Below are positions 1,248-6,243 of a DNA stretch of 64,000 nucleotides, one piece after another. How positions within the stretch are numbered: the first letter of the stretch is position 1; each line of letters begins with the position of its first letter. Made by a program: the position numbers and the translations under genes. The notes beneath the pieces were generated by a model. That model was not told the DNA's origin. It was given only the letters and a program-made list of their open reading frames with translations, and made no database searches. Origin of the DNA: Escherichia coli (lineage in GTDB: Bacteria; Pseudomonadota; Gammaproteobacteria; Enterobacterales; Enterobacteriaceae); assembly GCF_030013205.1 (NCBI RefSeq), contig NZ_CP122648.1; one strand, given 5' to 3'.

Positions 1248-3509
1248 TCATCCCCGACGCAAATTCTGCGCCGCCTGCACCATGTTCGCCAGTGCCGCGC
1301 GGGTTTCTGGCCAGCCGCGCGTTTTCAGGCCACAGTCCGGGTTGACCCACAGACGCTCTGCCGGAATGCGTTTTGCCGCTTTCTTCAGCAAGGCTTCAAT
1401 CCATTCCACGCTCGGTACGTTTGGCGAGTGAATGTCATAGACGCCAGGACCGATTTCATTTGGATAATCAAACTCTTCAAACGACTCCAGCAACTCCATG
1501 TCGGAACGCGAGGTTTCGATGGTGATGACGTCTGCGTCCAGCGCCGCAATCGAATCCATGATGTCGTTGAACTCGCAGTAACACATGTGAGTGTGGATTT
1601 GTGTGTCATCTTTCGCCACGGCGGCGTTGATACGGAAAGCCTCCACGCCCCACTGGAGATAGGCATCCCAGTCGCCGCGACGCAGCGGTAAACCTTCGCG
1701 CAGTGCCGGTTCATCAATCTGGATGATGCCAATTCCAGCGGCTTCCAGGTCCGCCACTTCATCACGCAGCGCCAGCGCAATTTGTTTGGCGATGGTTTCA
1801 CGGCTGACATCTTCACGCGGGAACGACCAGCAGAGAATCGTCACCGGGCCGGTCAACATCCCTTTCACCGGTTTATCAGTCAGGGATTGCGCATATTTTG
1901 CCCACTCCACGGTAATCGGTGCCGGGCGGCTAACGTCACCAATAACAATCGGTGGCTTCACGCAGCGGGAACCGTAGCTCTGTACCCAACCGTTTTGCGT
2001 AAAGACAAAGCCATCCAGATGCTCGCCAAAGTATTCCACCATGTCATTACGCTCGGCCTCACCATGTACCAGCACATCCAGTCCCAAACGTTCCTGCTCA
2101 ACAATGGCCTGCTTGATATGTTCCGCAATGCCCGTGCGGTAGTTGTTAGCGTCGAGATTACCCTTTTTGAAATCCAGACGCAGGGTACGAATTTCCGTAG
2201 TTTGCGGGAAAGAACCAATCGTGGTGGTCGGCCACGCGGGCAGTTTAAAACGCGCACGCTGGGCTTCAGCACGCACTTCATAGACATTCGCACGCTGACT
2301 GTCCTGGGCGGTAATGGCTGCAAGACGCTTTTCTACCGCCGGATTATGGACGCGGGTAGAGTGACGACGCGCCTGAATCGGAGCGCTCCACTCTGCCAGA
2401 GCTGCCGTATCACCACTGTTCAGCGCATCGCGCAGCAGTGCCAGTTCATGGCATTTTTGTAGGGCGAAGGCAAACCAGCTTTTCACTTCTGCATCAAGAC
2501 GCGTTTCCACGCTCAGGTCAATGGGGCTGTGCAGCAACGAGCAGGAAGATGCCACCCACAAATCGCGTTTGCCGACAATGTCCTTAATTTGCGCATATTT
2601 CTCGGTAAGATCGGCGCGCCAGACGTTACGACCATTGATCAGACCCGCAGACAGCAGCCAGTCAGAAGGCAGACGCTTGTGCAGTTCAGCAACGTCATCT
2701 TTACCATGTACAAGATCGACATGCAGACCCTGAACAGGCAGCGCAGTAATCGTGTCGAGATTTGGCGTTACGCCTTCAAAATAGGTGGTCAGCAGCAGTT
2801 TCACCTGTCCCTGGAGCGCGTCGTAAGCGGGTTTGTATGCGTCCAGCCACGCCTGCGGCAGTTCCAGCACCAGCGCGGGTTCGTCAATCTGTACCCACTC
2901 GATGCCGCGTTTCGCCAGTTCTGCCAGCACTTGCTGATAAACCGGCAGAATGTCGTTCAGCAGGCTCAGGCGGTCAAATTGTTCACCTTTCACTTTCCCC
3001 AGCCACAGGTAGGTAATCGGCCCCAGCAGCACAGGTTTCACCTTGTGGCCCAGCGCCAGCGCCTCGTCCACTTCGTCCAGCAGCTGCGTCCAGGTCAGTT
3101 TGAACTGTTGGCCTTTAACGAATTCCGGCACCATGTAGTGATAGTTGGTATTAAACCATTTGGTCATTTCCGCTGCCGCCGCAGGTTCGCCAGTCGGCGC
3201 ACGTCCACGACCAATACGGAACAGGGTGTCGATATCTACCGAACCATCTTTGTTCTGATGACGCGCCGGAACGTTACCCAGCAGCAGACTGGTGGTCAGT
3301 ACATGATCATACCAGGCAAAATCGCCCACCGGCAGCAGGTCGATACCCGCCTGCTTTTGTTGATCCCAGTGACGGGCACGCAATTCACGCCCTACCGCCA
3401 GCAGTTCTTCACGCGTGGAGTTCCCCGCCCAATAACTCTCTTGCGCTTTTTTCAGCTCGCGACGCAGGCCAACGCGAGGGAAACCGAGGGTGTGATTAAG
3501 AATTGTCAT
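1248..3509 (-). CDS. metE: cobalamin-independent methionine synthase
   Basis: 753 aa; translation matches E. coli MetE as I recall it ([19 protein letters not shown]...). Confidence 0.96.
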
Positions 3510-3626
3510 TATATGCCCCTTATGGAATTTTTAGTATTTAGCCGTCCAGATGTTTACACATCCATAATTGGCGGTTACTGTATATTCCTCAAGCGCAAAT
3601 TATTCATGCCGAAGTGAAGGACTTTC
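3510..3626. promoter_or_regulatory. metE-metR divergent control region; palindrome TGAAGGACTTTCA at 3615-3627 resembles MetR site consensus TGAA-N5-TTCA
   Basis: Divergent gene pair with 117-bp spacer; palindrome read directly; MetJ-box-like octamers near 3548-3565 are weak matches. Confidence 0.4.
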
Positions 3627-4580
3627 ATGATCGAAGTAAAACATCTGAAAACGCTACAAGCGTTGCGGAACTGCGGCTCGCTCGCAGCCGCTGCGGCGAC
3701 GTTGCATCAGACGCAATCCGCCCTGTCTCACCAGTTTAGCGATCTGGAACAACGCCTTGGCTTCCGGCTATTTGTGCGTAAAAGCCAGCCGCTTCGCTTT
3801 ACACCGCAGGGAGAAATCCTGTTGCAACTGGCAAACCAGGTGCTGCCGCAAATCAGCCAGGCACTGCAAGCCTGCAATGAACCGCAGCAGACGCGCCTGC
3901 GCATTGCCATCGAGTGCCATAGCTGTATTCAGTGGCTGACGCCCGCATTAGAAAACTTCCATAAGAACTGGCCGCAGGTAGAGATGGATTTTAAATCGGG
4001 CGTGACGTTTGACCCGCAGCCTGCGTTGCAACAGGGCGAGCTGGATCTGGTGATGACGTCAGATATTCTGCCGCGCAGTGGCCTGCATTATTCGCCGATG
4101 TTCGATTATGAAGTGCGTCTGGTATTGGCACCTGACCATCCACTGGCGGCGAAAACGCGTATTACACCGGAAGATCTCGCCAGCGAGACGCTGTTGATTT
4201 ATCCGGTGCAGCGTAGTCGACTGGATGTCTGGCGGCATTTTCTTCAGCCGGCAGGCGTCAGCCCGTCACTGAAAAGCGTCGATAACACCTTATTGTTGAT
4301 TCAGATGGTTGCCGCGCGGATGGGTATTGCCGCGCTACCGCATTGGGTAGTAGAGAGTTTTGAGCGCCAGGGTCTGGTGGTGACCAAAACCCTGGGTGAA
4401 GGCTTGTGGAGCCGACTGTACGCCGCCGTGCGCGATGGCGAGCAGCGTCAGCCGATTACAGAAGCGTTTATTCGCTCAGCGCGCAATCACGCCTGCGATC
4501 ATCTGCCGTTTGTGAAGAGCGCGGAGCGACCCACTTACGATGCACCCACAGTGAGGCCAGGATCACCAGCGCGCCTGTAA
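3627..4580 (+). CDS. metR: LysR-family regulator of methionine biosynthesis
   Basis: 317 aa; N-terminal HTH; divergent from metE as in E. coli. Confidence 0.93.
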
Positions 4581-5367
4581 TAAACGTTGGCCAGTGCGGC
4601 TGTTGGTGCCAGATAGCCAGGTTTACCAGCAGCCCTGCCGGAACGTGCATATTATTCATAATGCCCAGCGTTCCGGCGTCTACTTGGGTTGCGCCGTAGT
4701 TCCACATAAAGTAGCCAATCCCGGAAGCCACCACGCCAAGAAACACCAGAATGCCCCATTGCAACGTGGTTTGCGGCATTTTCTGCGCATTTCCCAGCAA
4801 GAACCATGCAATCACCGCCACCAGAAACGCGCCAAGATAGAACCACGCAAAGGCGTTATGCTGTGGCATCGGGCGAGTTTCCATCAGACGTTTGTAACCC
4901 ACCATGCCGATGGCAAAAGTGATATTGGAGAGCTGCACCAGCAGCAGGCCAGTCCAGAAGTGGTCGGTAACCTGATCATAGCGAATAATCCCGGCACCAA
5001 TCACCGCCAGCAAGGCGCTAAAAGCATAGCCCCAGCGCAGACGGCGCTGACTCATGATGTCATAAATCAACGTGATGTAGAGCGGCGTCAGTACGGTGAA
5101 CAGCAACAATTCGGAGACCGTCAGGTAGAGATAGGCGCGAAAACTCAGCATATACATCACGCCGAGCTGCATCGCGCCCACCAGCATATACAGGCCGACC
5201 GTTTTCAGGCTATTGCCACGGGTACGCAGAAACGGCAAAAAAACGAGTGCCGCCAGGCCAACGCGCACCAGCACCGCAAAATAGCTATCGACGTGCCCCG
5301 CAAGGTACTCGCCATAAAAGCTAAAGGAGAAGGCCCACAGAATCGTGGTGATGATAAGTAGCGCCAC
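4468..5367 (-). CDS. yigM: EamA/DMT-family inner membrane transporter (biotin transporter in E. coli)
   Basis: 299 aa, highly hydrophobic; position between metR and yigL matches E. coli. Confidence 0.8.
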
Positions 5368-5442
5368 AATGGAAAACTCTTTGATTAACGAGTATCCATT
5401 GTAGCGAAGTATCAGGTTGACAACTGGCCAAATAAAGAACGA

Positions 5443-6243
5443 TTACGATAAATAGAGCTTACGCAGATAATGCGGCACCGCGTCGTCGGCATTAGTACCA
5501 ATCACTTCCAGCTCCGGATGCAGATCTTTCAGACGCTGGTGCGCACTGCCCATAATGCAGCCTTTCCCCGCCATCGACAGCATTTCGGCGTCGTTCATCC
5601 CGTCACCAAAGGCAATACAATCCTTCAGGCTGTAGCCCAGTTTCTTCGCCACTGCTTCCAACGCATGGCCTTTCGACACGCCGCCCGCCATCACTTCCAG
5701 ACAGGTTAAGGTAGAGAAACTGACGTTGACGCGATCGCCCCAGCGAGCGTTAATCGCCTGCTCCAGCGGCAGCAGTTGTTCATGGGAATCGCAGGTGAAG
5801 AACACTTTGCTGACGCCTTCCGGCTCCAGTAATCCAGGCTCATACAGCGCATATTTGAACACCGCTTCTTTAAAAAAGCGCATCTCTTCTGGGCGATGGC
5901 GATTCATAAACCATTCGTCGTCGCGATAAACGTTAGTAATGATGTCCGGATTGTCGTTGACTACGCCAAACAGATCGCTGGCAATATCGCGATCCAGGTT
6001 ATGAGCAAAAATCAGATTACCATCCAGATCGTGAACGCGCGCGCCATTGGAGGTAATCATGTAAGACTTAATCTCCAGATTATCGCGAATTTGCCCCACA
6101 TCAACGTGGTGACGACCGGTCGCAAACACAAAGTTGATGCCGCGCGCGGTGAGCAGCTTCAGAGTTTCTTTGGCGTAAGGGGATAACGTATGGTCGGGAG
6201 AAAGTAACGTGCCATCTAAATCAGACGCAACAACCTGGTACAT
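5443..6243 (-). CDS. yigL: Cof-type HAD sugar phosphatase
   Basis: ORF track gives 308 aa; trimmed to the MYQVVASDLDGTLL start (ATG at 6243), the HAD DxDGT motif; 8 bp downstream of pldB. Confidence 0.8.
   Translation of the reverse strand: MYQVVASDLDGTLLSPDHTLSPYAKETLKLLTARGINFVFATGRHHVDVGQIRDNLEIKSYMITSNGARVHDLDGNLIFAHNLDRDIASDLFGVVNDNPDIITNVYRDDEWFMNRHRPEEMRFFKEAVFKYALYEPGLLEPEGVSKVFFTCDSHEQLLPLEQAINARWGDRVNVSFSTLTCLEVMAGGVSKGHALEAVAKKLGYSLKDCIAFGDGMNDAEMLSMAGKGCIMGSAHQRLKDLHPELEVIGTNADDAVPHYLRKLYLS

Follow-up and report, generated by a model that had tools for sequence, protein, structure and literature searches.

Constraint on each reading frame in the convergent overlap of metR and bioP (yigM) in Escherichia coli

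Introduction

In Escherichia coli, the convergent genes metR and yigM (bioP) are annotated with coding regions that run into each other at their 3' ends. Such an arrangement raises the question of whether both proteins really extend to the end of their reading frames and, if so, which of the two frames is under selection in the shared DNA and whether the transcripts act on each other. A preliminary description of the locus had proposed an overlap of about 113 bp, obligatory antisense transcripts over the two gene ends and a possible coupling of expression. We have examined these proposals in a window of 64,000 nt (contig NZ_CP122648.1 of assembly GCF_030013205.1; one strand, positions counted from its first letter) and by comparison with other Enterobacterales.

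Results and Discussion

Two genes of known function share 113 nt

The metR coding sequence occupies positions 3627-4580 on the + strand (ATG start, 317 aa in the ORF list, in agreement with RefSeq) and encodes the LysR-type activator of metE and metH. On the - strand, the yigM/bioP coding sequence occupies positions 4468-5367 (GTG start, 299 aa in the ORF list) and encodes an EamA/DMT-family biotin transporter, named "bioP: biotin transporter" in RefSeq. The segment common to both genes, 4468-4580, thus measures exactly 113 nt and encodes the C-terminal end of each protein together with its stop codon: MetR residues 281-317 on the + strand and YigM residues 263-299 on the - strand. The extent of the overlap proposed earlier is confirmed by the ORF coordinates and by RefSeq, and the identities and lengths given for the two genes agree with the ORF list, Pfam and RefSeq.

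The stop codon of yigM, TAA, is the reverse complement of 4468-4470 and is made by the codons of the invariant Phe281-Ile282 of MetR (TTT ATT) on the opposite strand. That of metR, also TAA, lies at 4578-4580 and is made by the codons of YigM Ile263-Thr264; a second TAA follows directly and spans Phe262-Ile263. The two frames are in such a phase that metR codon position 1 faces yigM position 1, metR position 3 faces yigM position 2 and metR position 2 faces yigM position 3. According to the ORF list and the sequence itself, neither gene has an in-frame stop ahead of the annotated one. An earlier end of one of the two proteins, which would have turned the apparent overlap into a non-coding tail, was looked for in E. 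coli and none was found.

The same boundaries are given by RefSeq/PGAP in strain K_EC180 (100% identical), NCTC86 and K-12 MG1655. In K-12, bioP lies at 4011076-4011975 (+) and metR at 4011863-4012816 (-), which again makes an overlap of 113 nt, and the region was found in 5423 of 5426 complete E. coli genomes. The metR-bioP overlap is therefore already annotated, in the RefSeq record of K-12, and has been published (Côté et al. 2016).

Both products are well characterized. In MetR, Pfam recognizes HTH_1 at residues 5-63 and LysR_substrate at residues 86-288; residues 1-92 are identical to those in the E. coli MetR structure PDB 5FO5, and the regulatory domain of PDB 4AB5 aligns with residues 87-296. 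The conserved core of MetR ends with FV-x-x-A-E-R-P, at residue 302. In YigM, two stretches match Pfam EamA, the better one (139-275) ending at residue 275, and the conserved core ends with LWVHRxWVAP, at residue 282. The function of BioP as a biotin transporter was demonstrated by Côté et al. (2016) and has been used in published work on EHEC.

The overlap is conserved in Enterobacterales and probably lost in two lineages

We observed that the distance from the start of metR to the start of yigM is exactly 1741 nt in 85 Enterobacterales species, that is to say in all 81 Enterobacteriaceae sequences and in Yersinia, the Dickeya-like locus L084, Pectobacterium and Sodalis; loci L088 and L089 (P0130), in which the translation of the called gene did not match the query, were left out of the comparison. 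Most of 80 Enterobacteriaceae species have an overlap of 113 nt, and so does Yersinia; lengths of 116 nt (a few species), 98 nt (locus L023 and L084) and 95 nt (Pectobacterium and Sodalis) were also seen. Conservation of the two stop positions extends over at least three families of the order.

A chance overlap of open reading frames is ruled out, since both genes have a known function and Pfam domains and since their stops are conserved across Enterobacterales families. Indeed, all the features of a genuine convergent overlap of coding sequences are found together: 3' nucleotides shared without an earlier stop, two real genes and conserved stop positions.

Serratia and Erwinia have kept both genes without any overlap. 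In Serratia, YigM has 286 aa and MetR 314 aa; about 10-12 nt of the junction between the two cores occur twice, around approximately 90 nt of hairpin-rich DNA, and both peptide motifs are retained. In Erwinia (YigM 287 aa, MetR 312 aa), a DUF1456 gene is inserted between metR and yigM. In a midpoint-rooted tree of MetR and YigM with one genome for each of the two genera, Serratia and Erwinia nest inside the lineages that carry the overlap. This arrangement suggests that the overlap is ancestral and would have been undone twice by insertions, in Serratia and in Erwinia. With the opposite polarity, a microhomology-mediated deletion of 101 nt in an ancestor would yield the same junction. The yigM homologues of Vibrio and Microbulbifer were considered as outgroups and set aside, as they are not adjacent to metR and cannot polarize the origin of the overlap.

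The tails beyond the two cores are variable. The sequence of the MetR tail differs widely between genera, and the tails of Serratia and Erwinia are unrelated to that of E. coli. YigM proteins of 284-287 aa are found in nature, in lineages of Salmonella and in Serratia, Gibbsiella, Chania and Erwinia, and distant YigM homologues have short and unrelated tails, which end soon after the last transmembrane helix.

Such short orthologues, together with the finding of Pallejà et al. (2008) that most long overlaps come from misprediction, are what would be expected if the overlap were an annotation artefact, in which one protein ends earlier and the shared DNA is a non-coding tail or a mispredicted 3' extension. 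We regard this as extremely improbable: without earlier in-frame stops, the tails have to be translated by any ribosome that travels along a full-length mRNA, the stop positions are conserved in the several families mentioned above, and the function of bioP is lost when metR is deleted. At the level of the open reading frames, misannotation is effectively refuted.

Most of the overlap is selected for one protein at a time

Constraint was then measured in 81 species as diversity and as Fitch steps for each codon position. Three parts can be distinguished in the shared segment.

The first part, 4471-4520, is governed by MetR on the + strand. It encodes MetR residues 282-298, that is the end of the last helix of the regulatory domain and a linker, and lies opposite the cytoplasmic tail of YigM (residues 284-299). 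The variable sites there are third positions of metR codons and, on the other strand, second positions of yigM codons. Over 4471-4532 (845-906 of the segment running from the metR start to the yigM start), diversity is 0.04, 0.07 and 0.24 at metR codon positions 1, 2 and 3, with 1.05, 0.81 and 6.33 Fitch steps, respectively. Thus 4471-4520 evolves in the frame of MetR, and the YigM tail that it encodes is largely a passenger and largely dispensable.

The second part is the junction of the two cores, GCGGAGCGACCC, at 4521-4532, which is constrained on both strands. It encodes A299-E300-R301-P302 of MetR (+) and V280-A281-P282 of YigM with parts of the W279 and R283 codons (-). In the 81 species, practically no diversity is seen there at any of the three codon positions. 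Of its four metR synonymous sites, the second shows a single Fitch step and the other three show none, whereas elsewhere only 2.7% of such sites are without a step.

The third part, 4533-4577, is governed by YigM on the - strand. It encodes YigM residues 264-279, the end of the last transmembrane helix, opposite the MetR tail (residues 303-317); the sites that vary fall on the third position of yigM codons and hence on the second position of metR codons. In this part yigM third positions have a diversity of 0.417, versus 0.414 in the rest of yigM, and 11.6 Fitch steps versus 14.4; the third position of the YigM H276 codon shows a single step, versus a mean of 13.4. We observed, in other words, that 4533-4577 evolves in the frame of YigM and that the amino acid sequence of the MetR tail is a passenger.

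A depression of synonymous change in both frames across the whole overlap was not found; it is present only at the 12-nt junction 4521-4532. The 113 nt are thus not uniformly dual-coding and most of them are selected for one protein at a time.

The separation is not perfectly clean. Over the YigM tail, with the junction excluded, metR synonymous sites show about 8.8 steps, versus 12.9 outside the overlap (averages of per-site values), so that the metR synonymous rate in 4471-4520 is down by only about one third. Since metR synonymous change is reduced there, the word "passenger" should not be taken as absolute for the YigM tail: the tail itself, or an RNA feature, may carry some constraint. 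In addition, two residues, YigM Glu299 and MetR Asp305, hardly vary in Enterobacteriaceae without being imposed by the opposite frame, as the single step at the third position of the H276 codon illustrates.

We have considered whether both C-terminal tails could be functional, with all 113 nt under purifying selection in both frames. The invariant junction, the lower metR synonymous change over the YigM tail, the two unforced residues and the avoidance of premature MetR stops described below all point in this direction. However, the yigM synonymous rate in 4533-4577 is that of the rest of the gene and MetR second positions vary freely there; the YigM tail changes mainly at second positions, in step with metR synonymous sites, and shows no avoidance of stops; and truncated or replaced tails occur in nature. 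Full dual coding appears very unlikely to us.

Our overall reading of the locus, which we consider quite probable, is that of a genuine and old convergent overlap, annotated before, between two unrelated genes whose cores abut at a 12-nt junction. From this junction, each frame runs through the core of the other gene up to the point where it encounters a stop codon.

Premature stops are disfavoured in the MetR tail

The MetR tail depends on synonymous choices made in yigM. At 4561-4566 (- strand), the codons of YigM V268 (GTG) and I269 (ATC in this sequence, the rare ATA in many species) set whether or not a stop appears at MetR codons 312 and 313. V268 is encoded by GTG in 79 of 83 species, and GTT or GTC would give TAA or TGA in metR. 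For I269, ATA is used in 36 of the 83 species, versus 2.7% among the other isoleucine codons of the two genes, and in all eight species that have ATG as the next codon.

We compared the two tails with a null obtained by column transplantation. An early truncation of MetR is seen in 5 of 85 species, versus about 32 expected, and none of 2000 simulations gave a value as low. Under the same null, YigM is truncated early in one of the 85 species, versus about 6.6 expected (P = 0.19), which is not a signal of stop avoidance. The MetR frame stays open in more species than would follow from synonymous codon usage, and premature stops are disfavoured in it, which also argues against the overlap being an artefact of annotation.

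Each transcript probably ends inside the opposite gene

A scan of 4000-5600 detected no intrinsic terminator at the gene ends and one site, at chance level, inside metR. With neither an intergenic space nor an intrinsic terminator, each mRNA would be expected to end inside the other gene, and termination would most likely be Rho-dependent once ribosomes leave at the stop codon. On the bioP-sense strand, a Rho termination region has been published at K-12 position 4011704 (+), with a Rho score of 5.07 and P = 1.3e-12. The score peaks at position ~4739 of the window, some 270 nt ahead of the bioP stop; this published measure compares 800-nt windows and is based on about 100 reads. The curated Term-seq 3' ends of Adams et al. 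include none at metR or bioP.

Downstream of the yigM stop, on the - strand, 4340-4475 is a candidate for a structured 3' UTR of the yigM mRNA, its function being proposed from the predicted fold. It is antisense to metR codons ~238-283 and would form hairpins at 4412-4455 and 4367-4395, without a U tract, within a C-rich and G-poor stretch at 4341-4400 (C/G ratio 2.2). For the E. coli sequence on this strand we calculated a minimum free energy of -49.2 kcal/mol and z = -4.3. Averaged over 11 Enterobacteriaceae, z is -3.2 on the - strand versus -0.6 on the + strand; most control windows are near 0, within a range of +0.1 to -2.3, and the same test gives z near 0 in Serratia and Erwinia, where the genes do not overlap. 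In the covariation analysis of the hairpins, paired cells make up 89% of the total and the - strand is compatible with many one-sided G-U changes, but values as high as those observed came up in 14-21 of 500 shuffled controls, a frequency within the range that the tool gives for unconstrained alignments. Lying just beyond the stop, such stable and strand-specific hairpins would shield the bioP mRNA at its 3' end.

On the other side, the region just 3' of the metR stop, 4598-4760 (+), is antisense to yigM and contains predicted hairpins at 4598-4634 and 4636-4678, followed by a C-rich and G-poor patch at 4701-4760 with a C/G ratio of 2.44. Its fold has z = -1.8 in E. coli, and the mean z is -1.5 on the + strand versus -0.6 on the - strand. 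Transcripts of metR may be terminated here in a Rho-dependent manner. A structure within the 113 nt themselves was also considered and dropped, z being about 0 on both strands, and no Rfam family matched 3300-5800 at E <= 1.

The coupling demonstrated so far is genetic

The proposal that the two transcripts are necessarily antisense to each other over their ends holds provided that full-length proteins are made from mRNAs containing the stop codons, and it fits the absence of terminators. Nevertheless, this property does not set the locus apart: in E. coli, 276 of 370 convergent operons give complementary 3' ends, over 286 nt on average (Conway et al. 2014).

The further proposal, that the overlap can couple the expression of the two genes, found no support. 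The p19 dsRNA-capture study lists neither metR nor bioP in its supplementary tables, both are missing from the Term-seq table, and Rho-dependent termination on the bioP-sense strand would, if anything, limit antisense transcription into metR.

What has been demonstrated is of another nature. Côté et al. (mBio 7:e01714-16) noted that "yigM overlaps substantially with metR" and that deletion of metR disrupts yigM and abolishes biotin transport; the metR deletion showed synthetic lethality with a bioA deletion and made cells sensitive to MAC13772, an inhibitor of BioA. It physically removes the 3' end of bioP. The demonstrated coupling between metR and bioP is genetic, lesions in either gene harming the other, and not regulatory; a regulatory coupling through antisense 3' ends is possible but unproven. 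We found no literature that pairs yigM with the word "convergent".

One may still ask whether the overlap is maintained as a regulatory device, in which polymerase collision or RNase III cleavage would couple metR and bioP and so link methionine/SAM to biotin uptake. Biotin synthesis consumes SAM, and a physiological rationale can thus be imagined. Both mRNAs must cover the 113 nt, the unit is free of indels across Enterobacterales, and the predicted fold of the bioP 3' UTR is specific to one strand and not seen in species with separated genes. On the other hand, the lack of the two genes in the dsRNA tables and the limiting effect of Rho speak against such a device, among convergent E. coli operons it is usual for the 3' transcript ends to overlap, with or without a coding overlap, and Serratia and Erwinia have separated the genes and kept both. 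Freedom from indels is expected in any case, since any indel would shift the frame of at least one essential core. For these reasons we hold a regulatory device of this kind to be unlikely. That the overlap is actively maintained by a functional interaction of the mRNA 3' ends, which would tie biotin uptake to the methionine/SAM regulon, seems to us quite unlikely as well; such a reading would draw on the indel-free 1741-nt unit, on the avoidance of stops through V268 GTG and I269 ATA, and on the bioP 3' UTR structure that vanishes when the genes are separated.

Consequences for work on metR and bioP

The main value of the tail-to-tail overlap described here is practical. Any change to metR 3' of codon 280 also alters bioP, and vice versa, and the phenotypes of standard knockouts are confounded. 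Indeed, a metR deletion mutant acts as a biotin-transport mutant (Côté et al.), and a bioP deletion should also take away the end of the last helix of MetR; the Keio deletion of bioP would be expected to eliminate metR codons ~289 to 317. The locus is in addition a clean textbook case of how a long convergent overlap persists: the cores touch over 12 nt, and what lies antisense to each core is a low-constraint tail of the other gene. If the 3' ends did couple methionine/SAM regulation with biotin uptake, the overlap would matter more; nothing yet indicates such a coupling.

Comparison with known systems

The locus of Côté et al. (2016) and of the K-12 RefSeq record is the same one, with identical boundaries and the same 113 nt; the evolution of the overlap and the transcript ends were not analysed in that study. 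The present work adds how constraint is divided between the frames, where the overlap occurs among Enterobacterales, its probable loss in Serratia and in Erwinia, and the predicted fold of the bioP 3' UTR.

According to Pallejà et al. (2008), the convergent orientation is the only one in which long overlaps can be real. The metR-yigM pair resembles the class that they describe (where Rogozin et al. 2002 is cited) in being convergent, longer than 60 bp and formed by two well-characterized genes whose 3' ends run together. However, most of their putative real cases are confined to very close species, whereas metR-yigM spans several families with an invariant length of 1741 nt.

With the convergent operons of Conway et al. 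(2014) and with the excludon concept, metR-bioP has in common the complementary 3' ends of the RNAs, which are obligatory here through the coding overlap. In most of the 276 cases of Conway et al., by contrast, the coding regions are separate and the RNA overlap comes from leaky terminators. The excludon is moreover defined by a reciprocal effect on expression, which metR and bioP are not known to show.

Dar and Sorek (2018) described Rho-dependent mRNA 3' ends whose protection comes from stable stem-loops that lack a U tract. The bioP-sense RNA would be organized likewise, as a stable predicted stem-loop without a U tract is found 3' of the stop, at 4340-4475 (-), in a C-rich and G-poor stretch. 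It differs from their cases in that the hairpins lie inside the coding sequence of another gene and that the peak of the Rho score is about 390 nt upstream of them.

Finally, antisense overprinted genes such as pop, antisense to ompA, and laoB, antisense to a CadC-like gene, share with metR-bioP the property that both strands encode protein. Nevertheless, pop and laoB are novel open reading frames lying wholly inside an older gene, whereas metR and bioP are two old functional genes that overlap only by their short C-terminal tails.

Structure and annotation of the metR-bioP locus

The DNA of the window is E. coli chromosome, in which metE (1248-3509, - strand) precedes metR (3627-4580, + strand; 317 aa) and yigM, presently named bioP (4468-5367, - strand; 299 aa, GTG start), with yigL and pldB as further genes nearby. 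The TAA stop codon of yigM is the reverse complement of 4468-4470, that of metR lies at 4578-4580 with a second TAA directly after it, and there is no earlier in-frame stop in either the metR or the yigM frame. The convergent overlap of 113 nt at 4468-4580 and the two protein lengths given in the preliminary description are therefore exact. We found the same boundaries in RefSeq for a 100%-identical strain, for NCTC86 and for K-12 MG1655 (bioP 4011076-4011975, + strand; metR 4011863-4012816, - strand), and the region itself in 5423 of 5426 complete E. coli genomes. In E. coli Z135-6 (locus L003, 1728-3547; complete genome), a 636-nt hypothetical gene replaces the segment from metR codon ~139 to bioP codon ~76, and both genes are annotated as pseudogenes.

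Côté et al. reported that a metR deletion is synthetic lethal with a bioA deletion and that the metR deletion mutant is sensitive to the BioA inhibitor MAC13772, phenotypes which they ascribed to disruption of yigM. Since the overlap is present in RefSeq and was published in that study, its description was correct but not new: the metR-bioP overlap is genuine, of an ordinary kind and previously known. An evolutionary dissection and a candidate bioP 3' UTR element add detail, and no new phenomenon.

On the other side of metR, the intergenic region shared with metE (3510-3626) measures 117 nt in the window strain; it is about 119 nt longer in NCTC86 (locus L002, ~611-846), and the K-12 spacer has the same 236 nt. 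The additional DNA of NCTC86 falls in the regulatory region common to metE and metR and contains AAGTAAGTGACCGGGGTGGAG, which resembles the ERIC repeat as represented by the ERIC2 primer.

Most of the overlap is selected in a single frame

Both metR and yigM are genuine genes, and it is possible to locate where the folded part of each protein ends. MetR contains an HTH_1 domain (residues 5-63) and a LysR_substrate domain (86-288), and the structure of the Neisseria MetR regulatory domain (4AB5) aligns as far as residue 296; YigM contains two EamA stretches, the second of which ends at residue 275. The overlap encodes MetR residues 281-317, corresponding to the last helix of the regulatory domain and a 21-residue extension, and YigM residues 263-299, corresponding to the end of the last transmembrane helix and a cytoplasmic tail of ~20 residues.

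As the alignment is gap-free, diversity and Fitch parsimony steps could be read directly by codon position. Outside the overlap third positions vary, with means of 13.3 steps in metR and 14.4 in yigM, and within it the variable codon class changes at ~4533. In 4471-4532, metR third (yigM second) positions show 6.3 steps and the two remaining classes 1.05 and 0.81, indicating that the left part is selected as MetR with a passive YigM tail. In 4533-4577 the variable class is that of yigM third (metR second) positions, with 11.6 steps and a diversity of 0.417, compared to 0.414 over the remainder of yigM; the right part is thus selected as YigM and there it is the MetR tail that is passive. At the junction of the two conserved cores (4521-4532, GCGGAGCGACCC), which encodes A-E-R-P in MetR and W-V-A-P-R in YigM, every position is invariant: its four metR synonymous sites show 0, 1, 0 and 0 steps, when only 2.7% of synonymous sites elsewhere have zero steps. 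Both motifs are retained in Serratia, which has the genes apart.

The tails appear largely dispensable, and the MetR frame is kept open

The MetR (303-317) and YigM (284-299) tails appear largely dispensable. In distant YigM homologues, 1-17 residues of unrelated sequence follow the last helix, and YigM is 284-287 aa long in variants from Salmonella lineages, Serratia, Gibbsiella, Chania and Erwinia. Serratia and Erwinia have MetR tails that bear no relation to that of E. coli. The label of passenger is not absolute. Over the YigM tail, synonymous change in metR is about one third rarer than elsewhere in the gene, and the MetR frame is shielded from early stops. Codons V268 and I269 of yigM (4561-4566 in the window) both keep the opposite metR frame open. 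Of 83 species, 79 have GTG at V268, where GTT or GTC would place a stop codon in metR; I269 is the rare ATA in 36 of 83 species, compared to 2.7% of the other isoleucine codons of both genes, and in all eight species whose next codon is ATG, a context in which ATC or ATT would stop metR.

We compared these choices with a null in which codon columns were transplanted from sites with the same conserved amino acid, changing third positions only and keeping relatedness. An early-stopped MetR was observed in 5 of 85 species when ~32 were expected, and none of 2000 simulations gave so low a number. For the YigM tail, the same null gave 1 observed against ~6.6 expected (P = 0.19). The rarity of MetR stops implies some selection on the length of MetR, or for translation to extend this far, but none on most of the sequence of the tail.

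Distribution of the overlap

A survey in which each species was represented by one genome yielded 80 Enterobacteriaceae loci. Their overlap is mostly 113 nt long; a few have 116 nt and a single locus has 98 nt. All 81 sequences have exactly 1741 nt between the starts of metR and yigM, and the same span was observed, with an overlap of 113 nt, in Yersinia frederiksenii, with 98 nt in a Dickeya-like metagenomic contig and with 95 nt in both Pectobacterium brasiliense and a Sodalis species. In Serratia marcescens the convergent neighbours are the same and the overlap is absent, with a 36-nt spacer, a span of 1842 nt, a YigM of 286 aa and a MetR of 314 aa. A DUF1456 gene sits between metR and yigM in Erwinia toletana, and the yigM homologues of Vibrio and Microbulbifer are not adjacent to metR. 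Two metagenomic contigs (L088 and L089) carry yigM-like loci in which metE and Hydrolase_3 are fragmented, and look like parts of a degraded genome, possibly that of a symbiont; translation of the gene called there does not give the query protein, and both loci were set aside.

In Serratia, ~10-12 nt of the E. coli junction are present twice, flanking ~90 nt of GC-rich, hairpin-forming DNA; the gene tails at the spacer (L091, 3362-3397) contain GC-rich inverted repeats, such as GGGCCA-N12-TGGCCC. This duplication points to an insertion that duplicated its target and abolished the overlap. The mirror image, a microhomology-mediated 101-nt deletion in an ancestor, could also have left such a pattern. 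A tree of the cores of MetR and YigM places Serratia and Erwinia within overlap-bearing lineages, and on these sequences the most parsimonious reading is an overlap ancestral to the sampled families and undone twice by insertions.

Transcript ends and a candidate bioP 3' UTR element

Between 4000 and 5600 we detected no intrinsic terminator except one chance-level match within metR, and no Rfam family matched. Lacking such a terminator, each mRNA must run into the other gene, and that the transcripts are antisense over their ends, as first proposed, follows logically. The further proposal that this can couple their expression found no evidence: neither metR nor yigM is mentioned in the supplementary tables of a p19 dsRNA-capture study. 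Antisense ends are moreover not distinctive, since according to Conway et al. (2014) 276 of the 370 convergent operons of E. coli have 3' ends that are complementary to each other (mean 286 nt). The demonstrated interaction between metR and bioP is genetic.

Adams et al. (2021) reported a bioP-sense Rho termination region with a score peak at K-12 position 4011704 (+ strand; window ~4739, - strand), of coarse resolution (800-nt windows) and low read counts (Rho score 5.07, P = 1.3e-12); in their curated Term-seq table, metR and bioP have no entry for a 3' end. The peak falls within bioP, ~270 nt before its stop codon and, if it is accurate, much bioP-sense transcription in LB stops before the overlap.

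Downstream, 136 nt of the - strand from the bioP stop codon (4340-4475), antisense to metR codons ~238-283, form a candidate 3' UTR element with hairpins at 4412-4455 and 4367-4395 and no U tract. Its folding in E. coli is far more stable than that of shuffled controls (z = -4.3), and the mean z in 11 Enterobacteriaceae is -3.2 for the - strand against only -0.6 for the + strand. Control windows elsewhere in metR and yigM gave values mostly near 0 (+0.1 to -2.3), and the homologous metR segment of the non-overlapping Serratia and Erwinia gave ~0. The hairpins lie within a C-rich, G-poor stretch (C/G 2.2); past the metR stop, the + strand has a similar but weaker arrangement. We consider the element a plausible inference and no finding, its covariation support being inconclusive.

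Comparison with known systems

Hairpins without a U tract in a C-rich, G-poor setting resemble the architecture described for Rho-dependent 3' ends by Dar and Sorek (2018). By analogy, those of bioP may be the protective 3' stem-loop of a Rho-terminated mRNA, located inside the coding sequence of another gene. As to the overlap itself, it is not known to have the reciprocal effect on expression by which an excludon is defined, and it is not an overprinted novel gene. According to Pallejà et al. (2008), nearly every overlap of more than 60 bp is a misannotation unless it is convergent, and the putatively real convergent overlaps are conserved mostly among very close species only. The metR-bioP overlap is a member of this convergent class, and an unusually long-lived one.
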